In this document: piece by piece, positions 8,917 through 21,491 of the stretch
Layout of the letters: each line of letters begins with the position of its first letter
Numbering within the stretch: the first letter of the stretch is position 1
Assembly (NCBI GenBank): GCA_017435465.1
Contig: JAFSEX010000005.1
Location: 134,793 to 198,792, forward strand
Direction: 5' to 3'
Length of the DNA stretch: 64,000 nucleotides
Source of the DNA: Bacilli bacterium
Lineage (GTDB): Bacteria; Bacillota_I; Bacilli_A; RF39; UBA660
Notes under the pieces: generated by a model
Database searches by the model: none
Told to the model about the DNA's origin: nothing
The model's input: the letters and a program-made list of their open reading frames with translations, nothing else
Position numbers and translations under genes: made by a program

Positions 8917-10215
8917 TTATTTATTTTTTAAACTTTTATTAACTAATTTATAATGATGTAGAGTAACATATAAAACATTCACTATAGTAGCAATTATTAA
9001 TGGATACATTCCAATTCTAAGTAAAGATAATCCAAATAATAATATACATTTAATTATAATTCCTATTAGGGTTGCACTAAAGGCATCACGAGCTTTATTC
9101 ATTGCTTGCAAAGCACTTGTTAAAGGACCTTGAATATAGAATATTAAAAAGAATGGAGCTAAAACTCTTAAATAATTTACACCTTCAGTAGTGTTATAAA
9201 ATAATTTTAAGAAAAATTTAGGGAAAATAATTAAAGCACTTGTAACAATTAATCCTATACTAAATGAAATTACGCACGCTTGTTTAATTTTTTCTTTAGC
9301 ATGTTTTATGTGTCCATTAGAATAACTTTTACTTATTACAGGAATTAACGCTTGAGAAATTGCCATCGCGAAAAATGAAGGCATTAATAATGTTTGAATA
9401 ACATATCCAGAAATTATTCCATATTCATAGGTTATAAATTTAGTAGAGTAGCCTACTAAAAGCATAGTTTGTGTAATGATTATTGGTTCTAAAAAATAAC
9501 CAAGTGATCCAACTAACCTAGAAGAAGTTGTTGGAATAGATATTTGCATTACATCTTTAATTATTGATTTATCAGGTTTTAATTCTTCTTTTGTAACTCT
9601 AAATTTTTTTGGTAAATAAAAATATAAAATTAAAATAGATAATAATTCACTAACAACATTATAAATAACTAATCCTGCTACTGCAAAATTTATACCTCGT
9701 TTTAAAAGAATAGGAGTAATAAAAATTATTATTATTAGTCTTATAATTTGTTCAAAAACATTTGATACAACGTGTGGAATCATTTTTTGTTTTCCAAAAA
9801 AATATCCACGAGCAATACTTGAAATACCAATAAAGGGTAGGGTAAATCCAATGCAGACAATTGGTAAATATGTATTACTATTTTTTAATAAAATATTTGA
9901 CATAAAAGGAGCAATTAAAAATATTAATAATATTAATAATGTATTAAATATTATTGATACGAAGATTGTAGAAAATATAATTTTTTTATTATTTGTTTTA
10001 TCCTCACTTACTAACTTTGAAATCGCAATTGGAAAACCCAGTTGTGATAGTGTAATAAATAAATTAAAAGTAGGAGTAATTAACATGTAAAGTCCAATAC
10101 CTTCGGTTCCAACAATTCTTGTGGTAAAAACTTTAATAATCATTCCTAAAATTTTAGTAAGAAACCCTCCTAATACTAAAATAAGTGTAGATTTTATAAA
10201 AATATTCTTATTCAT
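8917..10215 (-). CDS. MOP-superfamily flippase (MurJ/SpoVB-like)
   Basis: 432-aa polytopic membrane protein. The N-terminus ..LILVLGGFLTKILGMIIKVFTTRIVGTEGIGLYML is typical of SpoVB/MurJ-type polysaccharide/lipid II flippases. Confidence 0.7.
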   Translation of the reverse strand: MNKNIFIKSTLILVLGGFLTKILGMIIKVFTTRIVGTEGIGLYMLITPTFNLFITLSQLGFPIAISKLVSEDKTNNKKIIFSTIFVSIIFNTLLILLIFLIAPFMSNILLKNSNTYLPIVCIGFTLPFIGISSIARGYFFGKQKMIPHVVSNVFEQIIRLIIIIFITPILLKRGINFAVAGLVIYNVVSELLSILILYFYLPKKFRVTKEELKPDKSIIKDVMQISIPTTSSRLVGSLGYFLEPIIITQTMLLVGYSTKFITYEYGIISGYVIQTLLMPSFFAMAISQALIPVISKSYSNGHIKHAKEKIKQACVISFSIGLIVTSALIIFPKFFLKLFYNTTEGVNYLRVLAPFFLIFYIQGPLTSALQAMNKARDAFSATLIGIIIKCILLFGLSLLRIGMYPLIIATIVNVLYVTLHHYKLVNKSLKNK

Positions 10216-10319
10216 AGTTCACCTTCATATCTATAATAAATATATGAATGAATACTTGTGAAAATGTATATTCTATGTTATTATGTATATAGGTGAGTGA
10301 AAACTCATAAAATAAAAAA

Positions 10320-10356
10320 GGATACATTTGACTCTCGTGAATCAAATGCTTTCCCT
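10320..10356 (+). repeat. Left copy of an inverted repeat with a hairpin
   Basis: ggatacatttga-ctctcgtgaa-tcaaatgctttccct. Its reverse-complement partner is at 21007-21037. Internal 7-bp stem catttga/tcaaatg. Confidence 0.5.
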
Positions 10357-10364
10357 ATTCGGGT

Positions 10365-10404
10365 GCATCTGAAATCAACTATTGTTGAAATCAGATGCTT
10401 TTAT
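10365..10404 (+). terminator. Rho-independent terminator after the left repeat
   Basis: gcatctgaaatcaac/gttgaaatcagatgc hairpin (13 of 15 paired) followed by ttttatt. Confidence 0.55.
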
Positions 10405-10886
10405 TATTTAAATAGTAAGACTATTACTATAAAGATGTTTCATACTATAAGTAATACAAAATTGAAAAACTTATTTTAAATGAATTGTTAATAAATGAAA
10501 ATTAATTTTAATTTTTTCATATAAATAAAATCTTATTATCATTATAAATAAGAGAATATCATTTTCTCATTAATTTTATAATTATAAAATAATATTTTAT
10601 GCTTTAAATTTGTGTAAATAGTATATCTTGTTTATATTAAATGTTTGCAAAAACTATGACATTCCAAGATTTGCTACATATAAAATTTTATGATATTATA
10701 GACACACTAAAGGGATATTAGTTTTCTAAAATTTTAAAAAGAAAAATAAAGTGTTTATTTAATATATAATATAATTGTAAGTTATATTATGGTGATAATT
10801 TAATTATATAATTACTCGTATACTCGTACAAAACTAAAAATTTATATAAATACTAATTGTAACATAATAAGGAGTTCGATTTTACT

Positions 10887-12479
10887 ATGGATTTAATAAA
10901 ATATGACTTTGAAAGAAAAGTGATTAATGATCTTAAAAAATATGATATGAAATATAATTTAAAAGAATTAAAAAAAATATATTGTGAATTTATTAAAATA
11001 ATAAACAATTCAAAAAACCATAGTAATATTGTTCGGTTCCATAAAAGAATTACTTACACTTATAGCAATATGAAATATGATAATTTTTACAATTTTTATT
11101 CCAAAAAAATTAATCGACTACAATTTGAAAAAAACAATAAAACAATACAAAAATTCAAAAATAAATATATTAAAACTTGTGATTTGTTATTTGATTATTT
11201 TCAAAAATTTTCTAGAAACAATAGTGATAATAAGTATTTATTGTATTTAAAACAAAATTATAAAATAAGTAAAGATGAATATTATATTAAATTTTATAAT
11301 AACTTTAAAGTAGATGTATTTGTTGAGAATAAAAAAATAATGGTCTCTTTTTCTAATATTTATGATTTAATGGATTTAATAAATTCCCATAGTAATAAAG
11401 AATATATATATCATAAATTTACAAAAAAAATAAATGAATATGAAAAAAGATTTAAAAAACACATTGTTTCCATTATTAATAACAATTTGTGTATTGAAAA
11501 TTATTTTTCAAATATTTTGACTGAAAACAATATAAATTATAACTGTTTATGTAATATAAAGACAATTATAAAAAGAAGTGAAATATTAAATATGTATGTT
11601 TCATATAAGAAAAAAATATTGAAAAATGATAATTTATTTCAAATTGAGCTATTCTCATATAATTATTATTATAATATTAATTTTAAATTAGAAAATATTC
11701 TAGAAGTATTTTCATTGTTTGGAGAAAATTACATAAGCAATATTAAAAATAAATTACAGAATAGTATTATTATTGATAATACATTGAATAATAAAGGATT
11801 AACCATTAGTAATTTATCTGGTAATGGATTTATATTAATCAAAAACCTTAATACTATTGAGAATATTTTTGTTACGGTACATGAATTGGGTCATTTAATG
11901 TATAATTATTATATTGATAACAAATTTATGACTTCTAAAGAAATTTTAATTTCAGAAATATCTGCCATTTTAAATGAAATTCTATTAAATGATTATTTGG
12001 TTAAAAACAATTTATCGAATAATATTTACTTTTTAGATAGTGTAATGAAAATATTAGTTAATGGTATAATAGAATTTGAATTTTTAGAGGACATTTATTT
12101 ATACCACAACAATGATTATTCTTATATTAAAGAAAAATATTATGAAATAACAAAAAATCTTTATAATGAAGAAGTTCATATAAATAAAGATAATATTGAT
12201 TTTATTATTGACAATAATATATATAATGACATATATCCATTACGTTATATTGTCGCGTTAATAATTTCAATAAATATATTTAAAAATATACAAGAAGATT
12301 CAAATTATATAAATAAGTATTTTAAATTTATAAAACAATCTTCTTCTGTTAACAGTATTGATGAAGCATTAAAAATTTTAAATATTAATTTAAAACAAAA
12401 AAAAGTTTATGAAAATATGATTAGTTATCTATATAATATTATTAATCATTGTATTATTTCTGAAAAAAACACTATGTAA
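10887..12479 (+). CDS. M3B-family oligoendopeptidase F-like metallopeptidase
   Basis: VHELGHLMY zinc motif with downstream EISAILNE (HExxH...E), 530 aa. Extremely Asn/Lys/Ile/Tyr-rich. Confidence 0.7.
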   Translation: MDLIKYDFERKVINDLKKYDMKYNLKELKKIYCEFIKIINNSKNHSNIVRFHKRITYTYSNMKYDNFYNFYSKKINRLQFEKNNKTIQKFKNKYIKTCDLLFDYFQKFSRNNSDNKYLLYLKQNYKISKDEYYIKFYNNFKVDVFVENKKIMVSFSNIYDLMDLINSHSNKEYIYHKFTKKINEYEKRFKKHIVSIINNNLCIENYFSNILTENNINYNCLCNIKTIIKRSEILNMYVSYKKKILKNDNLFQIELFSYNYYYNINFKLENILEVFSLFGENYISNIKNKLQNSIIIDNTLNNKGLTISNLSGNGFILIKNLNTIENIFVTVHELGHLMYNYYIDNKFMTSKEILISEISAILNEILLNDYLVKNNLSNNIYFLDSVMKILVNGIIEFEFLEDIYLYHNNDYSYIKEKYYEITKNLYNEEVHINKDNIDFIIDNNIYNDIYPLRYIVALIISINIFKNIQEDSNYINKYFKFIKQSSSVNSIDEALKILNINLKQKKVYENMISYLYNIINHCIISEKNTM

Positions 12480-12502
12480 ATTATTAAATATAATAAAATC
12501 TA

Positions 12503-12531
12503 TTGACAAAGCTTTAATTTATCATTATAAT
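12503..12531 (+). promoter_or_regulatory. Consensus sigmaA promoter for the sORF
   Basis: TTGACA (12503-12508), exactly 17 nt, TATAAT (12526-12531). Confidence 0.7.
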
Positions 12532-12554
12532 CCAATGATAAGGAGGGCTAATAT

Positions 12555-12644
12555 ATGATAAAATTTATCAAATCTTTATTTTTTAAGAAATTAGATAAAA
12601 ATGATTTAGAATTATTGGCTATTTGTGAGACACATAGATCATAA
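12555..12644 (+). CDS. 29-aa small peptide, candidate precursor/scaffold peptide (not in the ORF track)
   Basis: ATG at 12555, 7 nt after aggaggg. Translation is MIKFIKSLFFKKLDKNDLELLAICETHRS*. It has its own consensus promoter and a downstream hairpin, and lies immediately upstream of the enzyme operon. Confidence 0.55.
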   Translation: MIKFIKSLFFKKLDKNDLELLAICETHRS

Positions 12645-12660
12645 TCTAAATTGTGATTTG

Positions 12661-12690
12661 GACTGTATCAAATAGCGATACAGTCTTTTT
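12661..12690 (+). terminator. Hairpin/partial terminator after the sORF
   Basis: gactgtatc-aaatagc-gatacagtc followed by ttttt. It lies 36 nt before the next gene's start. Confidence 0.65.
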
Positions 12691-12725
12691 GGATTATTAG
12701 ATTTATGTAATGGAGGTAATAAAAA

Positions 12726-14675
12726 ATGAAAATTATGGATTTAAAAGATGCTACTTCAATTTCTGGAGGAAAAGCATCTGGATTAGCACTGTTGAATAAG
12801 ATGATGGTTCCAGTTCCTTCTGGATTTGTAATTAATGACACATTGAGTTTAAATTATGATAACAATGATATATATTTAATTCAACAATATTTAAAAAAAC
12901 TTGATTCATCAAAGAAATTAGCAGTAAGATCATCAGCATGTGCTGAAGATGGTATTAATAAATCGTTTGCTGGTATATTTGAAACTGAATTAAATGTAAA
13001 TAATGACATTGAAAGTGTTTTGAGAGCTATCCAAAAAGTTAATGCAAGTGCTACAACTGATGTTGTAAAAGCATATTCAAATAATGAAAGACAAATAATG
13101 AATATTGTAATACAGGAAATGGTTGAACCAAAAATTGCAGGTGTATTATTTTCTGACGCAATGGATATTAATGGCGATAATGTTATACTATTTGAATGTG
13201 TTGAGGGACTTGCTGATAAATTGGTAAGTGGGGCAGCAGAACCAGCACAAATAATAATTAAAGTTAAAAACAATGAGATAGATGAAACAAGTATAAGAGT
13301 AGAAGGAAATCTTTTAGATTTGAGCACATTAAAAAATATATTCCCTTTTGTTAATAAAATTAAAAAAATAAGTGATAGACCACTTGATATTGAATGGTGT
13401 ATTGATAAAAACGGGAATCCATATTTTGTACAAGCACGGCCTATTACTTCAACAGTATTTATTAATAAAACAACTGAAAATTCTGGAATAGTTGCTTCAA
13501 GAGGCTATGCGGAAGGTGAAACTTATGTAATTGATGAAAATCAATCGGATGAAGAAATAAAAAAAGAAATTGATAATTTTCCAGAAGGAGCAATTCTTGT
13601 TGCAGGAGTAACAGAAACATTATATATGCCAGCAATAAAAAAAGCAAAAGGAATTATTACAGAAGAAGGTTCAGCATTATCACATGCTGCTATTGTTTCA
13701 AGAGAGTTAGGAATACCATGTATCGCTGGGTACAAAAATGCTATTAATTTATTTCCTACTGGTACTAAAATAGTTCTAGATGCTTCAAATGGTAAAGTTA
13801 TATCAAATGGTATTGAAAATACATTAAATACCGAAAAAGGTTTTGAATTTGGAGAATTATATTGTTTTGATAATGCACATAGGGTTGATTTTGATAATTT
13901 TAATGTATTTTTTGAATCAACTTATGGCGGATTAATGTTACATATGAATAGTGAAAATGCTACTCCTAAAAATATGGAAAAAGTAGAAAAATATGCTAGA
14001 ACAATGTTTAATAGTTCACCAGAACAACATTTTGATGATAAATATTTATGGTATTTAGAAATAGAACGATTTAAAAAATTACCTTTTTATAATGAAATGA
14101 ATCAAAAAATGATGGAAATTGTAGAAAATAAAGACTCTATTATGCTTGAAACATTTTATAATGAGTCATTAAATATGTTAAGTGATTTAGTAAATTACAA
14201 ACAAAATGGCGCAAATGAAAAAGAAAAGTTAATCATTGATGAAATTGGTGCGGCTACTAATTTAATTTTAGATGCAATGTTGCCATTAGGTTACGCTTTA
14301 AGACAATGCTATTTTGATTCAATTAGCTTATTAAAAAAGTATAATTTAAATTTTAATGATTTATTTACTAATAGAAATTTAAACTTATCAGATGAAGAAT
14401 TAATCAAAATAAGAGATTTCTTATTTAGCGTATCTACAAATAGAAATGAAGTTTATGAAAAAATATGCAATATTGGTGCAACATCCCCAGAATATTTTGA
14501 ACTTAGAGATGGAGAAATAAGAAAAGCAAGTAATTATGATAATGATGCTAATATTGATACATTTTATAATTCTTTAACATATACTGATTTTGAAAATATT
14601 AGGTTAATAATGCAACGATATTTTTCTAAAAAAAAAAGTAACAATTCTTTAGTTTATGCTAGACATTCTAGGTAA
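12726..14675 (+). CDS. PEP-utilising enzyme family protein (ATP-grasp PPDK_N domain plus swivel phospho-His domain plus unassigned C-terminal domain)
   Basis: SGGKASGLALLNK..VPVPSGFVI, LAVRSSACAEDG..SFAGIFET (PPDK_N/ATP-grasp) and EEGSALSHAAIVSRELGIPCIAG (mobile His domain). About 290 C-terminal aa carry no motif I recognise. Confidence 0.8.
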   Translation: MKIMDLKDATSISGGKASGLALLNKMMVPVPSGFVINDTLSLNYDNNDIYLIQQYLKKLDSSKKLAVRSSACAEDGINKSFAGIFETELNVNNDIESVLRAIQKVNASATTDVVKAYSNNERQIMNIVIQEMVEPKIAGVLFSDAMDINGDNVILFECVEGLADKLVSGAAEPAQIIIKVKNNEIDETSIRVEGNLLDLSTLKNIFPFVNKIKKISDRPLDIEWCIDKNGNPYFVQARPITSTVFINKTTENSGIVASRGYAEGETYVIDENQSDEEIKKEIDNFPEGAILVAGVTETLYMPAIKKAKGIITEEGSALSHAAIVSRELGIPCIAGYKNAINLFPTGTKIVLDASNGKVISNGIENTLNTEKGFEFGELYCFDNAHRVDFDNFNVFFESTYGGLMLHMNSENATPKNMEKVEKYARTMFNSSPEQHFDDKYLWYLEIERFKKLPFYNEMNQKMMEIVENKDSIMLETFYNESLNMLSDLVNYKQNGANEKEKLIIDEIGAATNLILDAMLPLGYALRQCYFDSISLLKKYNLNFNDLFTNRNLNLSDEELIKIRDFLFSVSTNRNEVYEKICNIGATSPEYFELRDGEIRKASNYDNDANIDTFYNSLTYTDFENIRLIMQRYFSKKKSNNSLVYARHSR

Positions 14676-14688
14676 TAGGATAATTATT

Positions 14689-15678
14689 ATGACAAAATAT
14701 ATATTTAATGATAACACTAAACTTATTTTTATAAAGAACAATTATATTTTAATTCAAAATAATAATAAAAAGATAAAAGAAAAACTTGATGAGAATTTTT
14801 ATAATATGTTGTTTAAAGTTCAAAAAAACAATTATATTTTTTCTACTGATTTAAAATTTTTCACAGAAGAACAATTAAAGTTTTTATATGACAAATCGGT
14901 AATAAAAAAATTGAGTCCAATATCCGAAAAATATATCAACACTAGATATGAAAAATATCAAATATATTTGGAAAATATATTTTCGGATGCAAAAAAAATT
15001 GATTATATAAAAAATAATAACCAAAAAAAAATTTTATTTGTTGGCGCAGGTGGAGTTTGTACAGCAATAATCGACTATCTCATTTCTGTCGGATTTAATA
15101 GTTATGGAATTATTGATTTTGATATTGTAGAAACAACAAATTTTAATAGACAATTTAAATATAAGGAAACTGATGTTGGGAGTTTAAAAGTAAGTAAAAT
15201 AAAATCAAATCTAAATGAACAATATTCTGGATTAACAATTTCAACATATAATAAAAAAATCTGTTCTTCAAATGACCTTGATTATATTGTCGGTGATTAT
15301 AATCCTGACTTCATTGTCTGTGCAGCCGACACACCTATATTTTTGATTCAAAAATATATTGCTGAAGTATGTTTAAAAAGAAATATTGCTTGTATTTTCG
15401 GAGGAGTAGGTCAAACTAAGGGTGTGTTTGGACCACTATTATACAACAAAAAAGGGTTTAATAAATATTTAAAAAAAATTAATAATGTTTTATGTTCTTT
15501 AGAAGGTGTTTTTCCGTGTAAAGGATCATTTGGAATAACAAATTCTTTGATATCAAATTATATGGCAAAAGATATTATATTTTATATGATGAATAAAAAG
15601 AAAAAAGTAACCTCATTAAATAAAGAATGTGAAATTGATTTTGATAGGAATGTAATTTATGAAAAAGAAAGATATTAA
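14689..15678 (+). CDS. ThiF/E1-like adenylyltransferase (MccB/PaaA-like) with an N-terminal extension
   Basis: ILFVGAGGVCTAIIDYLISVGF..GIIDFDIVETTNFNRQ is a Rossmann/E1 signature starting near aa 115. The preceding ~110 aa are an extra domain. The start is uncertain (ATG 14689 or 14656). Confidence 0.75.
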   Translation: MTKYIFNDNTKLIFIKNNYILIQNNNKKIKEKLDENFYNMLFKVQKNNYIFSTDLKFFTEEQLKFLYDKSVIKKLSPISEKYINTRYEKYQIYLENIFSDAKKIDYIKNNNQKKILFVGAGGVCTAIIDYLISVGFNSYGIIDFDIVETTNFNRQFKYKETDVGSLKVSKIKSNLNEQYSGLTISTYNKKICSSNDLDYIVGDYNPDFIVCAADTPIFLIQKYIAEVCLKRNIACIFGGVGQTKGVFGPLLYNKKGFNKYLKKINNVLCSLEGVFPCKGSFGITNSLISNYMAKDIIFYMMNKKKKVTSLNKECEIDFDRNVIYEKERY

Positions 15679-16681
15679 TGATTTAATTAAAAATTATCAA
15701 GTAAACGAATCACCATTAATGTTATATGATTTATCACAATTAAAACTAAACATTCAAAAATTATTATTCTTAAAAACTAAATATAATGTTGAGTTTCTTT
15801 TTCCAGTTAAAGCATTTCCTGAATATAAAGTTTTAAAATTGTTTTTCGACTTTGGGTTTGGTTATGATATAGCTAATGAAAATGAATTTAACACAATTGA
15901 TAAAATCATAAACAAAGATACATTAATTTCTTTTAATGGTACTCCAACTATATCTAACAAAAAAGAATATAATAATATTATATATAATTTAAATAGTTTA
16001 AATGAATTAACTAACAAAACATTTTATAATGGAATAAGAATAAATACTTATATAAAAAACAAAACTGAATTTAGTAAATTTGGGATACCTATTGAAAAAA
16101 TAAAATCTATTAATAATAAAAAAATAAAATCTATTAGTTTTCATTTTTATGAGGAAAATAAAAAAAAGAAACTTAAGCATATTTTAAATTTTGCAAGAAA
16201 ATGTATAACTATATTTAAAAATCTAGATTATATTAATTTTGGTGGTAATTGGGATGTCATAGATGTTAGCAACTTCGAGAGAAACATAATTGAAATCAGA
16301 AAATATATAGATAATAAAATAAAAATTATATTTGAAGTTGGTGAAAATTGGTTTGAAAATTGTGGATATTTAGTTACCAAAGTTATAAGTACAAATGAGA
16401 TATCTAACAAAAAAATATTTTATATAAATGCTGGAAAAGATAGTGTTGCAAAATGGTCAGTTTTGAAACCTGTTAATTTGGAATATGAAAAAGAAGATAA
16501 GTTTACTTATATCATTTCTGGCAATAGTTGTTATGAGAAAGACATTTTTACTGTAACAAATAAAAAAGTTAATATATCAATTAATGATAAGATAGTTTTT
16601 GTTGGATTAAATGGATATTCTTATGCTTGGTGTAAAGAATTTAACGGTTCAAATTCTCCAGAGGTGATATTTTATGAATAG
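15659..16681 (+). CDS. Fold-type-III PLP-dependent decarboxylase (Orn/DAP/Arg decarboxylase family)
   Basis: FPVKAFP (PLP-Lys), GFGYDIANENEF and GNSCYEKDIF motifs. Its start overlaps the upstream stop by 20 nt. Confidence 0.75.
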   Translation: MKKKDINDLIKNYQVNESPLMLYDLSQLKLNIQKLLFLKTKYNVEFLFPVKAFPEYKVLKLFFDFGFGYDIANENEFNTIDKIINKDTLISFNGTPTISNKKEYNNIIYNLNSLNELTNKTFYNGIRINTYIKNKTEFSKFGIPIEKIKSINNKKIKSISFHFYEENKKKKLKHILNFARKCITIFKNLDYINFGGNWDVIDVSNFERNIIEIRKYIDNKIKIIFEVGENWFENCGYLVTKVISTNEISNKKIFYINAGKDSVAKWSVLKPVNLEYEKEDKFTYIISGNSCYEKDIFTVTNKKVNISINDKIVFVGLNGYSYAWCKEFNGSNSPEVIFYE

Positions 16682-17888
16682 TTATTATATTTATAAAAAA
16701 GATGAAATAAAGTATTTAGAAAATGAATATAAAGTTTCTTTACCACATAAATTATCTCTTAATGATTATATTGATTTTAAAAGAAATATATTTATTAATA
16801 TTCAAGGAAAATATAATATAACTGTAACAAATAAGAATTCAGTAGAATATGAAAATATCTTTACGAATAATCATATTTCATATAAATATTCTTATACAAG
16901 GTATGATAGCTATATTAATTATTCAAATTTTTGTAATGACTTTTATAAATTAGAAAAAAATAACCATTATAAGTCAAAGGTTTTTTTTACTAATAGTGGC
17001 ATGAGCGCAATAACATCTTTATTGTTAGCAATAAATACAGTTTTAGATGATTTTTCATTTTTATTACCAGATGAAGATATTTATTTTGAAACTTATGATT
17101 TTTATAATAAATATATAAAAGATAAAAATAATATTAATAAAAACATATTGTATATTGATACAATTGCGAAAAAATTCGATATTAAAAGATATATAAATCT
17201 TATAAATAATAATGATAATATTTTTGCTGTAGTAATTGATACTACTTGTTTTTTACCAAATGAGTTGAATAAACTGATTTCGAGCGTTATTAACAAAAAT
17301 TTATTGTGTGTTTTAGTTAGAAGTCATACTAAGTTAGATATGATGGGTTCTGAAATATCTAGTTTGGGTTCACTAGTATATTTAATACCACGCAAAACAG
17401 ATAATGAAAAATTTCAAATAATAAAAAGAATTATTTCAGAAAGTTATTATCTATTAGGTAAATTTGGAGCATTGTGTCTCCCTGATAAATTTCCAGAATT
17501 TATTTTTGATAAGAAATTTAAGAAAATAAATAATCAAAGAATAAAGCAAATAGAGAATAATAATTATAAATTATATACTTTTTTAAAAGATAATATTAAA
17601 AAAGGAAAAATAATATTACCAAAACATCAAAAATTTATCTTGTATGTTTTGAATGAAAAATTAGATAATGAATGTCAAAGTAATATTATAGAAAATAGTA
17701 TAAAATTATTTGTGAACAAAAATGAAAAACTATTTTATGCTTGTAGTTTTGGTTTTGATTATATAGCTCTTGATTCTTACTATGATATAAACGAAAAAAA
17801 TTATGTTATGAGAATATCCATGAATGATGATGAAAATAATGTTGATATTTTTAATGAAATTAAGGAGTTTATTAATGATAACTTTTAG
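16674..17888 (+). CDS. Fold-type-I PLP enzyme, Cys/Met-metabolism (CGS/CBL)-like
   Basis: FFTNSGMSAITS and VRSHTKLDMMGSE (the S-x-T-K PLP-lysine context). ATGAATAG start/stop overlap with the upstream gene. Confidence 0.5.
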   Translation: MNSYYIYKKDEIKYLENEYKVSLPHKLSLNDYIDFKRNIFINIQGKYNITVTNKNSVEYENIFTNNHISYKYSYTRYDSYINYSNFCNDFYKLEKNNHYKSKVFFTNSGMSAITSLLLAINTVLDDFSFLLPDEDIYFETYDFYNKYIKDKNNINKNILYIDTIAKKFDIKRYINLINNNDNIFAVVIDTTCFLPNELNKLISSVINKNLLCVLVRSHTKLDMMGSEISSLGSLVYLIPRKTDNEKFQIIKRIISESYYLLGKFGALCLPDKFPEFIFDKKFKKINNQRIKQIENNNYKLYTFLKDNIKKGKIILPKHQKFILYVLNEKLDNECQSNIIENSIKLFVNKNEKLFYACSFGFDYIALDSYYDINEKNYVMRISMNDDENNVDIFNEIKEFINDNF

Positions 17889-19152
17889 TATAGATACATT
17901 ACCTTTATCAAAAAATATTATTGATTCTAATGATTATTCTAGTAAAATAATATATTCTGCTACAAGCGATACTTTGTTTAAATATAGTTTAAAGAAAAAC
18001 AAAATAATTAAAAATTCTTGCAGTTACTATAAATATAGTAATAATAATAAAATTTTAACCATTAAAATTAGAGATGATTTATATTTTTATAACGGAGATA
18101 AAGTTACAGCAAACGATTATTATCATACTTTTAGACATATATTAAATTCAAAAACGCACATAGGGATAATATTTAGACATTTCTTTACTGATATAAAAAT
18201 ATTAGATGATTGTACATTTCAATTAGTAAATAAAACGAAAAATGATAAATCTTATGAAATATTATCAATTTATAGTGCTTGCTGTTTAAAAAACAATTAT
18301 ACTAGCGGTGCTTATTATATAGAAAAAACGGGGAAAAATTTTATTATATTAAAACGTAATGAATTTTATAGAGAAAAAATTCATAATAAAGATGCAGAAG
18401 TAATTAAGTTTATTTTAACTGATGGTCTAAATGATTATAAATTATTTAATAACAAGATAATTCAAATTACCAATAATACTATGTGTGATATCAATAATAT
18501 AGATAAATATAATTATATAAGAGAGAATAACTACATTTATTTAAATATCATTTTTTCTAATGAAATGATGAGAAATAGATATAAAAAAATCAGAAAAATC
18601 ATATCTGATATAATAGATAAAGATAAAATTGCTAATATGTTAGATAATAAGTATGATATTAATGAGTCTTTTATTGTAAATAATAGTATAACTAATATTA
18701 AGCGAAAAAAAATCAATATAAATATTGATACAACAAAGTCCATTAAACCCTTAACTTTGGGGTATAACAATTTTTATCCAAATAAAATAATTGCTGAAGA
18801 AATAAAAAAACAGTTAGAAGCAGTTGGATTTAAAATAGATTTAGTTGAAAATAAATTTAATATTAAAAATACATGTGATTTAAATATTACTCTTAACCAC
18901 TTAGAATACATTACAGAATCATCTATAATAAATGGTTCTTACTTTTTCGTGATTTTAGAAAAAAATTCAATTTATAAAACTATTCTTAAAATGTATAATG
19001 TAACACATAAAAAATATTTGTTGGATTTAATTAATAAAAAATTATTAAAATTAAAATATAAAATTCCGTTATTAAAAATGAATGGATACTATTTAAAATC
19101 AGATAAATATAATAAATTTAATTATATTGAACTTAATTTTAATGAAATGTAG
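17875..19152 (+). CDS. Family-5 solute-binding-protein-like protein without signal peptide or lipobox
   Basis: ATG 17875 lies 7 nt after AAGGAG. ..ATSDTLFKYS..LTIKIRDDLYFYNGDKVTANDYYHTF resembles the SBP_bac_5 (OppA/DppA/NikA) N-lobe. The N-terminus MITFSIDTLPLSK has no hydrophobic leader. Confidence 0.6.
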   Translation: MITFSIDTLPLSKNIIDSNDYSSKIIYSATSDTLFKYSLKKNKIIKNSCSYYKYSNNNKILTIKIRDDLYFYNGDKVTANDYYHTFRHILNSKTHIGIIFRHFFTDIKILDDCTFQLVNKTKNDKSYEILSIYSACCLKNNYTSGAYYIEKTGKNFIILKRNEFYREKIHNKDAEVIKFILTDGLNDYKLFNNKIIQITNNTMCDINNIDKYNYIRENNYIYLNIIFSNEMMRNRYKKIRKIISDIIDKDKIANMLDNKYDINESFIVNNSITNIKRKKININIDTTKSIKPLTLGYNNFYPNKIIAEEIKKQLEAVGFKIDLVENKFNIKNTCDLNITLNHLEYITESSIINGSYFFVILEKNSIYKTILKMYNVTHKKYLLDLINKKLLKLKYKIPLLKMNGYYLKSDKYNKFNYIELNFNEM

Positions 19153-19163
19153 GTGATTTATAT

Positions 19164-20831
19164 ATGATTGAAATAGCAGCATCACGTGTTAAAAAAAATT
19201 TTGGTTTCAAAAATGTTTTTGACTCTTTTGATTTAGAGGTTTCTACTGGTGAAAGAGTTGGTTTAATTGGCCCAAACGGATGTGGTAAATCTACTTTATT
19301 TAAACTAATAACGAAAGAAGAAACACCTGACTCTGGAATAATTACAATTAGAAAAGGTGCTAAAATAGGCTTTCTTTCACAAATGCCTTTTATTGATAAT
19401 AATGAAACGACAGTAAGGGAACTATTAAATTCAACTTTTAAAGATACTTATGATATTGCGACAGAAATGAAACGATTAGAAGAAAAAATGGGAATTGCTG
19501 ATAGTAAAGAATTAGAAAAGATATTAGACAGGTATGGTGTTTTACAACAAAGATTTGTTGATTTGGATGGTTATTCTATTGATTCAAAAATAAATGAAAT
19601 ATGTAATAAATTTAAAATTAATCATAATTTATTAGATAGACCATTTTTAAGTTTATCTGGTGGTGAAAAAACAATAGTCGGTTTTGCAACAATTATGCTC
19701 TCAAATCCAGATATTTTGCTTCTTGATGAACCAACCAATAATTTAGATATTGATACTTTAGAGTGGTTAGAAAAATATTTAAAAAATTATAGTGGAACAA
19801 TTATTATGAGCTCACATGATAGATATTTCTTAGATAAAGTAGCAAATAAAATAGTTTTAATCGAAAGGGGAAAATCAGAAATATTTTATGGGAATTATTC
19901 CTATTATCTAGAAGAAAACGAAAGAAGAACTTTATCTGAGTTTGAACAATATAAAGATCAACAAAAGATGATTGAGGCAATGAAAAAGAAAATAAAGCAA
20001 TTACAAGAATTCGGACGACTTGCTGCACCAAGCGGAGAATCATTTTTTAAAAGAGCAGCAAGTATACAAAAAAGGTTAGATAAAATAGAACTGTTAAATA
20101 AACCAGAAGAACAAAAAGAAATACCGTTAAATTTCCAAATGAATAACAGATCAGGGAAACAAGTGTTATTAATAAATAATCTTGATTTGAATATTGGTGA
20201 TAAAAATTTACTTAAAGATACTGAATTTAGTATTTATTTTAAAGATAAAATATGTTTGATGGGTAAAAATGGTTGTGGAAAATCAACATTAATAAAACAT
20301 ATAATTAATTTATATAATAATTCTGATAAAAGTGATGATGCAAATGTTAAAATAGGTAGCAATGTTTTAATAGGATATATCCCACAAATTATTGATTTTA
20401 AAAATAATAATGCAACTGTATTAGATGTTGCTAGAAAATATTTTAATGGAACTGAAACATATTTGAGAGCATCATTAGCAAAATTTATGTTTAATGGTGA
20501 TAATGTATTTAAAAAAGTAGGAAATCTTTCCGGTGGTGAAAAAATTCGATTAAAATTATTTGAACTTATGCAACAAAATATTAATTTTTTAATAATGGAT
20601 GAGCCAACTAATCATATTGATATAACAACCAAGGAAGTGTTGGAAAATTCCTTAAATGAATTTCAAGGAACAATTTTATTTATATCACATGATAGATATT
20701 TTATTAATGAACTGGCAAAAAAGATATTGTGCATTGATAATCAAACAATTACTGAATATTTAGGTAATTATGATGATTATAAAATAATAAAAGAAAAACA
20801 ATTAATTAGAGAAAAGAAATCTAGTAAATAA
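19164..20831 (+). CDS. ABC-F family ATPase (two ABC domains, no TMD)
   Basis: Two Walker A motifs (GPNGCGKST; GKNGCGKST), two LSGGE signatures, a charged inter-domain linker and SHDRYF motifs. Confidence 0.85.
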   Translation: MIEIAASRVKKNFGFKNVFDSFDLEVSTGERVGLIGPNGCGKSTLFKLITKEETPDSGIITIRKGAKIGFLSQMPFIDNNETTVRELLNSTFKDTYDIATEMKRLEEKMGIADSKELEKILDRYGVLQQRFVDLDGYSIDSKINEICNKFKINHNLLDRPFLSLSGGEKTIVGFATIMLSNPDILLLDEPTNNLDIDTLEWLEKYLKNYSGTIIMSSHDRYFLDKVANKIVLIERGKSEIFYGNYSYYLEENERRTLSEFEQYKDQQKMIEAMKKKIKQLQEFGRLAAPSGESFFKRAASIQKRLDKIELLNKPEEQKEIPLNFQMNNRSGKQVLLINNLDLNIGDKNLLKDTEFSIYFKDKICLMGKNGCGKSTLIKHIINLYNNSDKSDDANVKIGSNVLIGYIPQIIDFKNNNATVLDVARKYFNGTETYLRASLAKFMFNGDNVFKKVGNLSGGEKIRLKLFELMQQNINFLIMDEPTNHIDITTKEVLENSLNEFQGTILFISHDRYFINELAKKILCIDNQTITEYLGNYDDYKIIKEKQLIREKKSSK

Positions 20832-20852
20832 TTATTGAACTACTAGATTTCT
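20815..20852. terminator. Bidirectional terminator hairpin
   Basis: agaaatctagta / tactagatttct is a perfect 12-bp stem with a 14-nt loop. It overlaps the ABC-F stop codon. Confidence 0.6.
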
Positions 20853-20918
20853 TTGTTAACACATTACTGCTTAAATATTTATATTATATTATTTTATTTA
20901 TAAATAATGATTGAATTA

Positions 20919-20969
20919 TTAATATATATCAACAAAATTTGATATATAAAAAATTTCTCTTTTACTCAT
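20919..20969 (-). CDS. 16-codon sORF (MSKREIFYISNFVDIY) behind a strong SD
   Basis: On the minus strand: aggaaggtggtgg-tttt-ATG. It lies downstream of the right inverted-repeat copy and a TATAAT-like box. Coding status is unproven. Confidence 0.3.
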   Translation of the reverse strand: MSKREIFYISNFVDIY

Positions 20970-21006
20970 AAAACCACCACCTTCCTAGTATCAATAGATA
21001 AAAGAA

Positions 21007-21037
21007 AGGGAAAGCATCTGACTTTTCAAATGTATCC
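21007..21037 (-). repeat. Right copy of the inverted repeat with a hairpin
   Basis: The minus strand reads ggatacatttga-aaag-tcagatgctttccct. The stem catttga/tcagatg is kept through a U-A to U-G change. Confidence 0.5.
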
Positions 21038-21212
21038 ATATACATTATATAATATTATTGTTAACTGGTAAATAACTTTCACGAAATTTAGCGAACTTTT
21101 GTTCTGATGACAAAAAAATTAAATTTATATCAATACAAAAACTTATTAACCCCTTTAAAAATAAGTCTTTTTAATATATAATGTAAATATAAGAAAGGAA
21201 TAAAGTGGTAGT

Positions 21213-21491
21213 ATGAAAAAATTTAAAACTATCGAAGATTTATATAAAACAGTTTTCCCTGCACTAAAATCTAGAAAAGAAGATTTACATAGAGAAAAAT
21301 ATGTAATGGTAACTGAAGATGATATTTGGAATTATTTAGTTGAAACGAATTGGATAGATTCAGAAAATTTAGAATTATCAACAATAATTGATGATATTTT
21401 AAATGTAGATGGATATAAAGTAAGTCAATATGTTAAAGATAAAATGAATTCAAAAGAAAGATATTTATATTTTAAAGGTAATGAAGAATAA
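21213..21491 (+). CDS. ComN-like post-transcriptional regulator
   Basis: 92-aa protein immediately upstream of secDF, as B. subtilis comN (yrzD) is. ..EDDIWNYL...W motif. Confidence 0.5.
   Translation: MKKFKTIEDLYKTVFPALKSRKEDLHREKYVMVTEDDIWNYLVETNWIDSENLELSTIIDDILNVDGYKVSQYVKDKMNSKERYLYFKGNEE

Follow-up and report, generated by a model that had tools for sequence, protein, structure and literature searches.

Several peptide-modifying enzymes of the ThiF type are known, and these are the closest described systems to the locus analyzed here. MccB, the microcin C7 synthetase (PDB 3H5N, 6OM4), combines an N-terminal peptide-binding domain with an E1 adenylation domain and acts on a short precursor whose gene is followed by a terminator; its chemistry needs a C-terminal Asn, whose side-chain amide forms a succinimide and then an N–P bond, and aminopropylation of the product by MccD and MccE is documented. 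PaaA (pantocin A, PDB 5FF5), GrcB (thiolactone), EnfB (imide and amidation) and IndF (indolylamide) are RRE-fused E1 enzymes for other ribosomally made, post-translationally modified peptides (RiPPs). Every characterised ThiF-type RiPP enzyme activates a peptide carboxylate with ATP and lets a nucleophile displace AMP, and five reaction types are known so far, i.e., phosphoramidate, indolizidinone, thiolactone, imide and indolylamide. We compared with these systems a locus in a window of 64,000 nucleotides (the whole stretch of DNA analyzed), for which an earlier note had proposed an MccB/PaaA-like E1 gene overlapping an MccE-N-like PLP decarboxylase gene.

The observation of two overlapping genes was confirmed, and the pair was found to be genes 4 and 5 of an eight-gene operon (10887–20831; Table 1), which is conserved in uncultured gut bacteria and was not described in the literature searched. 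The E1 and decarboxylase genes overlap by exactly 20 nt, and both starts have AGGA-type ribosome-binding sites 8–9 nt upstream. Although the longest ORF for the E1 starts further upstream, independent gene calls on other contigs and all 22 homologues, which begin M-x-K-Y-I, support the start given in the earlier note. Neither gene is a chance ORF: the E1 matched Pfam ThiF (E = 3e-31) and has about 28 full-length homologues in 5.8 billion protein clusters, and the decarboxylase matched Orn_DAP_Arg_deC (E = 7e-7) and has about 30 close homologues.

Table 1. Features of the operon and its signals, with positions in the window.
Position	Strand	Length	Feature
10887–12479	+		Divergent M3 (PepF-like) oligoendopeptidase with an HELGH zinc motif; candidate leader peptidase
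12503–12531	+		Consensus sigma-70-type promoter, TTGACA-17-TATAAT, in front of the precursor gene
12540–12546			AAGGAGG ribosome-binding site of the precursor gene
12555–12644	+	29 aa	Precursor peptide gene: MIKFIKSLFFKKLDKNDLELLAICETHRS
12660–12696	+		Intrinsic-terminator-like hairpin plus T-run immediately after the precursor gene; probable partial terminator
12726–14675	+		PEP-synthase/rifampin-phosphotransferase-like enzyme: ATP-grasp (PPDK_N) domain, phosphohistidine swivel domain, family-specific 290-aa C-terminal domain
14656			Longest-ORF start of the E1 gene
14677–14680			Ribosome-binding site of the E1 gene
14689–15678	+	329 aa	RiPP-type E1/ThiF-like adenylyltransferase: N-terminal domain (RRE/peptide-clamp-like in the model) plus adenylation domain
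15646–15649			Ribosome-binding site of the decarboxylase gene
15659–15678		20 nt	Overlap of the E1 and decarboxylase genes (decarboxylase ATG at 15659, E1 stop TAA at 15676–15678)
15659–16681	+	340 aa	Fold-type III PLP decarboxylase of the carboxynorspermidine-decarboxylase lineage; optional tailoring enzyme
16674–17888	+		Divergent fold-type I PLP enzyme (methionine-gamma-lyase/Cys-Met family-like, Lys220)
17875–19152	+		Cytoplasmic homologue of family-5 peptide/nickel solute-binding proteins; possible substrate holder or product binder
19164–20831	+		ABC-F ATPase of the ribosomal-protection-like type; candidate self-protection (or sensing) factor; last gene

The interpretation in the earlier note was only partly supported, and two of its statements were corrected. 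It had placed the start of the E1 core at about residue 115; the nucleotide-binding loop GxGG is at residues 117–122 and the Pfam match starts at residue 111, but homology to the MccB adenylation domain already starts at residue 76–84, and the separate N-terminal domain is therefore about 85 residues. It had also taken the overlap to mean that the genes are almost certainly co-translated, whereas a 20-nt overlap indicates co-transcription and probably translational coupling. The overlap is not special to this pair, because the decarboxylase and PLP-enzyme genes overlap by 8 nt, the PLP-enzyme and binding-protein genes overlap by 14 nt, and in relatives the E1 gene overlaps whatever gene follows it, i.e., a methyltransferase, a fusion protein or the binding protein.

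The assignment of the E1 to the MccB/PaaA (RiPP) type rather than to ThiF/MoeB sulfur-carrier activators was supported. The best PDB sequence hit was MccB (E = 1e-11), and an AlphaFold model (AF2, pLDDT 92) searched with Foldseek ranked MccB first (E = 2e-21, about 340–358 columns) and PaaA second (E = 1e-17, 344 columns), both aligned over the full length, followed by MoeB and ThiF, which aligned over only about 245 columns of the core. The residues equivalent to the ATP/Mg site (G119, G121, G122, D143, D145, N151, R154, Q155, K167 and D214) are invariant in 23 sequences down to 29% identity, and R154, K167 and D214 have the same spacing as the essential R167, K180 and D225 of EnfB (PMC12250964). 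A conserved precursor-peptide gene lies two genes upstream of the E1 gene. Both grounds for rejection named in the earlier note failed: no rhodanese or nitroreductase fold was found in the N-terminal extension, and no ThiS/MoaD partner was found, since no ORF of 40–130 aa ending in Gly-Gly exists in the window. The view that the N-terminal domain is a peptide clamp or RRE rests on the predicted structure alone: its modeled topology (four strands, then three helices with two short intervening strands) is RRE-like, but the full-length TM-score to MccB is only 0.67 (rmsd 7–8 Å), sequence profiles of the protein aligned only residues 76–245 to an MccB-type protein, and no Pfam RRE model was hit.

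The precursor gene was read directly from the sequence and was called as a gene on independent contigs. Homologous small ORFs sit at the same position in 13 related loci with a readable precursor, and these gave 12 distinct sequences from independent metagenomes, which share the leader motif M-x-K-[FL]-[IFL]-[KR]-x-x-F in 11 of 12 and all end in [HQ]-R-[STC]: nine in Ser, two in Thr, one in Cys and none in Asn. The promoter before the gene is the only 12/12 match in 10200–21300; because promoter-like sites overall are not enriched over shuffles, this is suggestive only. The hairpin after the gene has a 10-bp stem with 4 GC pairs followed by TTTTT, 4 terminator-like sites having been found against 1.1 expected in shuffles, and it may set a high precursor-to-enzyme ratio. 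The peptidase upstream matched TIGR00181 pepF with E = 7e-20 and 71 bits, far below the cutoff of 490; its homologues lie directly upstream of the precursor in the related loci L009, L093 (as Pfam Peptidase_M3) and L096 (L numbers denote related loci hereafter) but are absent from several other loci.

The gene order is conserved across E1 identities of 36–72%, in gut, rabbit, Hadza and sediment samples, and the invariant core consists of the precursor, the phosphotransferase, the E1 and the binding protein. The phosphotransferase matched Pfam PPDK_N (E = 4e-35) and PEP-utilizers (E = 3e-22), with PEP synthase and rifampin phosphotransferase as PDB hits; the His motif (His320 in GSALSHAAI) is conserved in 7 of 7 orthologues, and the C-terminal domain has only 45 representatives among 1.84 billion proteins. 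The binding-protein homologue matched Pfam SBP_bac_5 (E = 2e-18) and had weak PDB hits to OppA-, NikA-, PrgZ- and DppE-type binders; all 7 orthologues start directly with M-x-x-F-S-[IL]-D and have no leader or signal peptide. The ABC-F is usually present, with orthologues at the same position in L097, L094, L006, L103 and L183. The window protein has two ABC domains with a linker and no membrane domain and scored 443 bits against the cutoff of 380 for the NCBI ribosomal-protection-like model NF000355; the orthologues scanned (L006, L094 and L103) scored 447–480, while a second, non-cluster ABC-F of L006, a housekeeping paralogue, scored 310. However, no named ARE subfamily model reached its cutoff, and the inter-domain region is of ordinary length (about 179 residues from Walker B1 to Walker A2).

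The decarboxylase and its PLP partner always occur together and form an optional cassette: the earlier note's pairing of E1 and decarboxylase is not obligatory, because L093 and L006, relatives with the same E1 and even the same core peptide, lack the decarboxylase; L093 has the same CETHRS core, and the decarboxylase is therefore not needed for the core chemistry. The note's term MccE-N-like is correct at the superfamily level (fold-type III PLP decarboxylase), and the nearest characterised relatives are carboxynorspermidine decarboxylases (PDB 3n29, E = 1e-7), with which the PLP lysine and all other active-site positions are shared (K51, H162, G195–G196, E226, C291, D295, Y320 and FNG328–330). 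A tblastn search of the decarboxylase against 72,556 plasmids gave no mcc hit, and a Salmonella mccB-like locus that was found has no mccD/E. The decarboxylase is orthologous to the C-terminal half of methyltransferase–decarboxylase fusions in L094 and L009, and it is fused or adjacent to a class-I methyltransferase in L094, L009, L183 and L099, which is an MccD/MccE-like arrangement. In the PLP enzyme, the motifs FTNSGMSAI, IDTTC and RSHTKLD are invariant; no PDB sequence hit was obtained, but Foldseek with its model (AF2 pLDDT 89) placed methionine gamma-lyases, CndF, MppP and LmbF at the top, with TM about 0.5. A homologous decarboxylase plus Cys/Met-type PLP pair sits in a peptide-free cluster with an arginase-family gene on a Mammaliicoccus plasmid and looks like a polyamine pathway (compare the carboxyaminopropylagmatine pathway, PMC10599626).

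We consider it somewhat more likely than not that the operon makes a RiPP of an undescribed family. What the analysis itself establishes is the precursor gene with its strong-looking promoter and leaky-terminator-like hairpin, the restriction of its universally conserved features to a leader motif and the C-terminal tripeptide, and an E1 with a predicted MccB/PaaA-like two-domain architecture and an intact adenylation site; expression of the precursor, leader binding by the N-terminal domain, and adenylation by ATP of the free alpha-carboxylate of the terminal Ser/Thr/Cys, followed by displacement of AMP by some nucleophile, are inferred. The note's suggestion of chemistry at a C-terminal carboxylate fits, since the C-terminus is the only carboxylate conserved in all 12 precursor sequences. 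It is likewise inferred that the PEP-synthase-like enzyme, through its phosphohistidine, and the binding-protein homologue act on the same C-terminal motif, because these proteins, the E1 and that motif are the invariant core.

More speculatively, the cassette would build an aminoalkyl group, probably of the aminopropyl type, the PLP enzyme attaching or making an amino-carboxy-alkyl unit and the decarboxylase removing its carboxylate, either on the peptide or on a free amine that the E1 then couples to the activated C-terminus; EnfB can, in a side reaction, amidate its activated C-terminus with free amines, a precedent for coupling a decarboxylase-made amine, and the logic would be that of MccD plus the MccE N-domain, carried out by different enzymes on a different acceptor. 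Fold-type III decarboxylases need a free alpha-amino acid, which does not exist on an unmodified peptide, so the substrate is hypothetical, and because the methyltransferase-containing relatives also keep the PLP enzyme, the donor of an amino-carboxy-propyl unit cannot be named on present evidence. After removal of the leader by the M3 peptidase, the cationic product would act on the ribosome, and the producer would be protected by, or would sense the product through, the ABC-F protein; a distinct RiPP cluster carrying a homologue of the PLP enzyme encodes a TetM-like protection GTPase. On the other hand, no dedicated exporter is conserved in the cluster, which is unusual for an antibiotic, and cluster-encoded ABC-Fs can also be regulators rather than resistance factors (LmrC, PMC8546547). 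A bolder and rather unlikely possibility, not excluded at present, is a new RiPP class in which the E1, the phosphohistidine enzyme (a PEP-synthase type never before seen acting on a peptide) and the binding-protein homologue rebuild the C-terminal Arg-Ser/Thr/Cys into a phosphorylated, cyclised or aminoalkyl-capped warhead that binds the ribosome, the ABC-F being the first dedicated ribosome-protection immunity factor of a RiPP.

Among the alternatives, a macrocyclase reading survives best, though we regard it as unlikely. In this view, the adenylated C-terminus is attacked by an internal side chain, the Cys five to six residues upstream (C-E-T-H-R-S) giving an autoinducer-like thiolactone, or by the terminal Ser/Thr/Cys heteroatom or the Arg guanidine, while the decarboxylase and PLP enzyme decorate something else. 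GrcB, IndF and EnfB all resolve the adenylate intramolecularly, a Cys lies 5–6 residues before the end in 11 of 12 precursor sequences, and the core chemistry does not need the decarboxylase. However, the L009 precursor (KMSMSQRS) has no Cys, although that cluster also has a fragmented ABC-F and may be decaying; and this reading gives no role to the invariant phosphotransferase and binding protein and does not explain why Ser, Thr and Cys are interchangeable at the last position.

More doubtful is a YcaO-analogue reading, in which the PEP-synthase-like enzyme phosphorylates a backbone hemiorthoamide or carbonyl so that the terminal residue cyclises onto the Arg carbonyl, giving an azoline or an acyl shift, and the E1 mainly binds the leader, as E1-like 'C' proteins do for YcaO cyclodehydratases. 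Ser/Thr/Cys equivalence is the signature of such chemistry, E1-like proteins are established docking partners of ATP-dependent cyclodehydratases, the phosphohistidine is invariant, and azole peptides such as klebsazolicin and phazolicin target the ribosome; NCBIfam hits relate the phosphotransferase family to PigC/RedH ligases, which use ATP to drive a condensation. Docking-only E1 proteins are described as serving primarily a peptide-binding role rather than carrying out a reaction with the adenylation domain, and they have typically lost the ATP-site residues, so that the invariant residues here argue for a working adenylation site; furthermore, no dehydrogenase for azole formation is present, and there is no precedent for a PEP-synthase-type enzyme acting on a peptide backbone.

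A true microcin-C-type system, in which a nucleotide is attached through a phosphoramidate and the decarboxylase completes aminopropylation of that phosphate, is very unlikely: MccB is the closest solved structure and sequence, and the terminator after the precursor gene and the decarboxylase with or without a methyltransferase recall mccA-mccD-mccE, but none of the 12 precursor sequences ends in the Asn that MccB chemistry needs, nothing indicates the nucleotidylation that the earlier note had listed beside cyclisation and amino-acid addition followed by decarboxylation, and a ribosome-associated ABC-F is not the immunity factor expected for an aminoacyl-tRNA-synthetase poison. The reading that no peptide is involved, with a sulfur-carrier activator or other primary-metabolism enzyme, a polyamine- or cofactor-forming PLP pair and a fortuitous small ORF, can be dismissed almost entirely, because, although the best named NCBIfam hits of the E1 are ThiF and MoeB (all far below cutoff, e.g., 75 against 275) and the PLP pair also occurs in the peptide-free plasmid cluster, no thiamin or molybdopterin genes lie nearby, the small ORF is conserved in sequence and position in 13 loci and has a strong ribosome-binding site, the extra N-terminal domain aligns with MccB and PaaA, and the family is far rarer than primary-metabolism enzymes are.

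ThiF-type enzymes are a small but growing source of new peptide chemistry, and this family adds a sixth precursor motif and a combination of E1, phosphotransferase, cytoplasmic binding protein and an optional pair of PLP enzymes that was not found in the literature; a new C-terminal modification is therefore likely. The usual presence of a ribosome-protection-type ABC-F predicts that the product acts on translation, and such a resistance-gene marker for a RiPP has not been described to our knowledge. Since the producers are uncultured, very AT-rich Bacilli from human and animal guts, the product may matter for gut microbial competition, and the compact operon (about 10 kb, one strand) is well suited to synthesis and heterologous expression. 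For annotation, the decarboxylase, the PLP enzyme and the precursor are at present 'hypothetical protein' or not called at all.

We finally compare the locus with the described systems one by one. The phosphotransferase has the ATP-grasp domain and the swivelling phosphohistidine domain of PEP synthase, rifampin phosphotransferase and PigC, but the third domain is replaced by the family-specific one, and its association with a precursor peptide and an E1 was not found in the literature. For PaaA, GrcB, EnfB and IndF, the precursor motifs are different (EEN, a GrcA precursor cross-linked between Glu35 and Cys39, WWIVI and NWYFI), and those clusters are small (enzyme, transporter, with or without a peptidase) and lack the phosphotransferase, binding protein, PLP pair and ABC-F; a weaker E1 relative (P0029, 31%) does sit in a PaaA-like plasmid cluster, but the E1 of the window does not. 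Compared with MccB and the mccA-F system, the identity in the structural alignment is only 22%, the precursors are 29–35 aa and their ends make the succinimide/phosphoramidate route unavailable, the E1 has no CxxC zinc site, and the operon contains no MccC-type exporter (MFS), MccF peptidase (S66) or MccE-C acetyltransferase (GNAT), while the phosphohistidine enzyme, the binding protein and an ABC-F are additional. Compared with carboxynorspermidine/carboxyspermidine decarboxylase (NspC, PDB 3N29), the decarboxylase is about 40 residues shorter, scores 47.9 bits against a cutoff of 409 for TIGR01047 and is encoded inside a peptide-modification operon, but it aligns over its full length at 24% identity with the same invariant catalytic positions, including the C-terminal FNG motif, which implies, as by analogy for the MccE N-terminal domain, a substrate with a distal amino-carboxy-alkyl group that becomes an aminoalkyl group.

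We first examined whether the two overlapping ORFs pointed out in the earlier note are genuine genes, and the observation was confirmed. The window, which derives from a metagenome-assembled Bacilli bacterium (contig ERZ28018825 k141_1963071), is very AT-rich with about 22% G+C; the ORFs of 329 and 340 aa lie on the same strand and overlap by 20 nt, and each has an AGGA ribosome-binding site 8–9 nt before its ATG. For the first ORF, the start at 14689, rather than that of the longer ORF at 14656, was supported by independent gene calls and by all homologues. The first ORF encodes a ThiF/E1-family protein (Pfam E = 3e-31) and the second a fold-type III PLP decarboxylase. The overlap is one of several in a tightly packed operon, the next two junctions overlapping by 8 and 14 nt, and it indicates translational coupling in general and not a special E1–decarboxylase relationship. 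Rfam and tRNA scans of the 64 kb found no Rfam family and no tRNA gene; nearly all genes are on the + strand, with a positive GC skew until about 58 kb, where the skew reverses.

Features of the window and of the other loci mentioned in the text (L numbers denote the loci examined for comparison)
Sequence	Coordinates	Strand	Feature
window	8917-10215	-	MurJ/SpoVB-like MOP-family flippase gene
window	10887-12479	+	Divergent M3/PepF-like peptidase (HELGH)
window	12503-12531		TTGACA-17-TATAAT promoter match
window	12555-12644	+	29-aa ORF MIKFIKSLFFKKLDKNDLELLAICETHRS
window	12660-12686		Intrinsic-terminator-like hairpin, plus a T-run
window	12726-14675	+	ATP-grasp plus phosphohistidine-swivel enzyme
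window	14689-15678	+	E1
window	15659-16681	+	Decarboxylase
window	16674-17888	+	404-aa protein, predicted divergent fold-type I PLP enzyme
window	17875-19152	+	SBP_bac_5 homologue without signal peptide
window	19164-20831	+	ABC-F ATPase
L006	4807-6645		Asparagine-synthase-like (AsnB-type) gene
L010	9851-11967		Pantocin-A-like cluster
L093	7988-15507		Radical-SAM variant, followed by five genes
L098	4682-11909		Peptide-free cluster with two decarboxylases
L101	2371-10212		Different peptide cluster with two radical-SAM enzymes

We next explain the E1 in more detail. By sequence, its best solved relative is MccB (E = 1e-11, query residues 84-257), which ranks ahead of eukaryotic E1s, MoeB (1e-6) and PaaA (6e-6). 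An AlphaFold2 model built on 23 family members is confident (pLDDT 92, pTM 0.89), and a Foldseek search against the PDB ranked every MccB chain first (E = 2e-21 to 1e-18, 340-362 aligned columns), followed by PaaA (1e-17, 344 columns) and then by MoeB and ThiF with only about 242-267 columns. In the model, the roughly 85 N-terminal residues run, in order, four strands, a helix, a short strand, a helix, a short strand and a helix, and this predicted domain is therefore alignable to the MccB/PaaA peptide-clamp/RRE domain, although the full-length TM-score is only 0.67, hhalign of the family profile against an MccB-type protein aligned only residues 76-245, which belong to the adenylation domain, and no RRE model hit in the Pfam and NCBIfam scans. 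Across 23 sequences, down to 29% identity, the nucleotide-binding residues G119, G121, G122, D143, D145, N151, R154, Q155, K167 and D214 are invariant, and R154, K167 and D214 have the spacing of the essential R167, K180 and D225 of EnfB (PMC12250964); this argues for a catalytically active adenylating enzyme rather than a docking-only E1. There is no CxxC zinc site. We also checked for a ThiS/MoaD-type partner, whose presence had been named beforehand as a sign against this assignment, and no ORF of 40-130 aa in the 64-kb window ends in Gly-Gly; the sulfur-carrier hypothesis was therefore rejected.

Upstream and downstream genes on the same strand form one unit of eight genes with the E1 and the decarboxylase. 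The 29-aa ORF has an AAGGAGG ribosome-binding site, the promoter match before it is the only perfect one in the region, and the terminator-like hairpin follows it. The phosphotransferase is related to PEP synthase and rifampin phosphotransferase and has a family-specific C-terminal domain. The 404-aa protein has invariant FTNSGMSAI, IDTTC and RSHTKLD motifs; because a PDB sequence search with its profile gave no hit even at E = 1, a structure was predicted, and this confident model (pLDDT 89) shows a divergent fold-type I PLP enzyme that is closest to methionine gamma-lyases, CndF, MppP and LmbF/CcbF, with TM about 0.5.

The E1 family is very rare: about 28 full-length relatives were found among 5.8 billion protein clusters, all from metagenomes. 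A scan of the GTDB species representatives found only two close relatives, both uncultured rabbit-gut Bacilli, and a scan of JGI metagenomes found one more family member (L103). We examined 14 related loci, 13 of them with a readable precursor, and a BLAST table confirmed orthology of each component. The precursor, the phosphotransferase, the E1 and the binding-protein homologue are always present. The ABC-F gene is the last gene in the window and in L097, L094, L006, L103 and L183, and is fragmented in L009. The variable part consists of the decarboxylase plus the PLP enzyme in the window, L097, L096, L103 and, by BLAST, L100; of a methyltransferase–decarboxylase fusion plus the PLP enzyme in L094, L009 and L183; of a separate methyltransferase, decarboxylase and PLP enzyme in L099; and of a radical-SAM/SPASM enzyme instead in L093 and in L006, the latter of which also has a class I/II aminotransferase. 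In L006, a relative from the Hadza gut, the AsnB-type gene lies directly upstream of the precursor in place of the M3 peptidase and may or may not belong to the cluster. L093 has no ABC-F and is followed by five genes with little or no Pfam annotation (224, 435, 1091 [DUF5411], 438 and 273 aa) that might be alternative tailoring, export or immunity genes.

Precursor peptides of the window and of related loci
Locus	Precursor
window	MIKFIKSLFFKKLDKNDLELLAICETHRS
L013 / L014	M[IV]KFIKSLFSKKLDKTDLELLAICETHRS
L097	MVKLIKSLFSKKLDENDLELLAICETHRS
L096	MIKFIKSLFTKKLDKSDLELLAICETHRT
L093	MLKFIKSLFSKKSKRLDKTDLELLAICETHRS
L006	MIKFFRRVFSKRSELTDKQLLTNCCIHRS
L094	MIKFIKSLFIKSEIEDIDAELASCSMSQRS
L183	MIKFIKSFFTKSEIKNIDAELASCAMSQRS
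L009	MTKLLKMLFGSNKIENIDDELVKMSMSQRS
L099	MIKLIREYFNSRKVVKLDNIEKKLLESCEAQRT
L103	MENKEVKTVEIESTTAAELDAVDVEILECSMTQRC

The invariant feature of these precursors is the C-terminal [H/Q]-R-[S/T/C], and a Cys lies five or six residues before the end in all but L009. No acidic residue in the core is conserved, so the only universal carboxylate in the core is the C-terminus; a Glu side chain as the E1 target was rejected, because the Glu in CETHRS is absent from CCIHRS and SMSQRS. The catalytic His motif of the phosphotransferase (GS.LSHAAI) is conserved in all seven orthologues checked, and all seven binding-protein homologues checked lack a signal peptide. The C-terminal domain of the phosphotransferase has only 45 representatives among 1.84 billion proteins, nearly all with the same 630-655-aa architecture.

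Beyond about 30 family members, the nearest relatives of the decarboxylase are carboxynorspermidine decarboxylases, at 24% identity over 99% of the length. An alignment shows that it shares every invariant position with them, namely K51 (the PLP lysine), H162, G195-G196, E226, C291, D295, Y320 and F328-N329-G330, and on this sequence evidence it should be active, although it fails the curated NspC model with 48 bits against 409. It always travels with the gamma-lyase-like PLP enzyme. A 28%-identical decarboxylase, again next to a Cys/Met-type PLP transferase, occurs on Mammaliicoccus sciuri plasmid pWHA07 (L098; NZ_CP077961.1), where the neighbours are another PLP decarboxylase, an arginase-family protein, an ABC-2 exporter and a GNAT, with no peptide or E1. 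That cluster resembles the agmatine-based carboxyaminopropyl route to spermidine (PMC10599626), with a PLP enzyme where the carboxyaminopropyl dehydrogenase would be, and thus looks like an unusual polyamine pathway; it suggests that the pair is a portable module that adds an amino-carboxy-alkyl unit and then decarboxylates it. In microcin C the same two-step logic is carried out by MccD (SAM-dependent) and the MccE N-domain, and the methyltransferase–decarboxylase fusions in L094, L009 and L183 echo that arrangement. A tblastn search with the decarboxylase against all PLSDB plasmids found no mcc plasmid, and a Salmonella mccB-like locus, opened after a search with the E1 for mccB-bearing plasmids, has only the E1, an MFS transporter and a hypothetical gene.

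On the basis of these data, what the analysis itself establishes is the architecture, the conservation and the intact active sites, whereas the mechanism is inferred from the behaviour of all characterised ThiF-type RiPP enzymes: the E1 would bind the leader and adenylate the terminal carboxylate, and a nucleophile would then displace AMP. Three candidate nucleophiles remain: an amine supplied or finished by the decarboxylase cassette, since EnfB shows such amidation; the upstream Cys, giving a thiolactone as GrcB does; and the terminal residue's own heteroatom or a backbone atom. The interchangeability of Ser, Thr and Cys at the last position points to chemistry that needs a beta-heteroatom, such as cyclisation onto the Arg carbonyl, an acyl shift or esterification, and argues against simple O-phosphorylation as the sole purpose of the phosphotransferase. 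We also considered phosphorylation of the terminal Ser/Thr by the phosphotransferase followed by lanthionine-type elimination; one family member ends in Cys (L103) and one lacks the upstream Cys (L009), which weakens this idea but does not exclude it. Because L093 has the identical CETHRS core without a decarboxylase, the decarboxylase is a tailoring step and not part of the core reaction. PLP decarboxylases of this fold need a free alpha-amino acid, so their substrate must be an added unit or a free metabolite, and this is the weakest link in the model.

A ribosome-directed product is suggested by two lines of evidence, and the protective role of the ABC-F remains likewise inferred. The cluster ABC-Fs scanned pass NCBI's ribosomal-protection-like model (cutoff 380 bits), with 443 bits for the window protein and 447-480 for L094, L006 and L103. 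The window protein is 40-59% identical to the L094, L097 and L006 orthologues, and the ABC-F of L103 is 43% identical to that of L097, while the window protein is only 30% identical to a second ABC-F in L006, which fails the model at 310 bits. We should note, however, that no exporter is conserved, that no named resistance subfamily model is passed, and that cluster ABC-Fs can be signalling components (PMC8546547); the flippase gene divergently oriented next to the operon is the only nearby membrane transporter, but it is not conserved next to the cluster in other loci and is probably housekeeping rather than a dedicated exporter. Independently, a 31-37% homologue of the gamma-lyase-like enzyme sits in an unrelated radical-SAM peptide cluster (L101, JGI 3300029705, and L102, ERZ27248370), which has a 30-aa precursor MKKQVKPTITVITKNNGNQSYMAVGVCHCN, two radical-SAM enzymes, a TetM-like ribosomal-protection GTPase (NF012153 525 bits, below the cutoff of 775 but well above EF-G models), an M29 aminopeptidase and a GNAT; this is a second candidate ribosome-targeting RiPP family.

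The interpretation in the earlier note is thus supported in part. Its core idea, a RiPP-type E1 next to a PLP decarboxylase with chemistry at a C-terminal carboxylate, is right as far as sequence and predicted structure can show, but its description is incomplete: the unit is an eight-gene operon whose invariant core excludes the decarboxylase, and a microcin-C-type nucleotidylation is unlikely. Two 2025 reviews of ThiF-type enzymes list five RiPP reaction types (phosphoramidate, indolizidinone, thiolactone, imide and indolylamide) plus the non-RiPP oxazolone, and neither mentions a PEP-synthase-like partner, a binding-protein homologue or an ABC-F; full-text literature searches on ThiF-type RiPPs in combination with PEP-utilizing enzymes, PEP synthase, rifampin phosphotransferase or ABC-F found no relevant papers. 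We therefore regard the E1 as belonging to a class already described and its association with these partners as new, with a realistic chance of new chemistry.

When compared with the known systems individually, the E1 is not a sulfur-carrier activator. It is not a microcin C synthetase in the strict sense, as there is no C-terminal Asn and no mccC/F, and it is not a PaaA, as there is no EEN core and no oxygenase. The most distant full-length E1 relative (P0029, 31% identical) does sit in a pantocin-A-like cluster on small Rep3/MobA plasmids from metagenomes (L010, L011 and L012), with a 48-aa ORF (MHHNNTSHYNEANFESKTSNVSDDEYEYNLSIEMIEVDIVTSDFVMRT), the E1 and a Cupin_8/JmjC-like oxygenase, alongside a divergently oriented methyltransferase and MFS transporter. 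The E1 of the window belongs to the class of RiPP ThiF-like adenylyltransferases.
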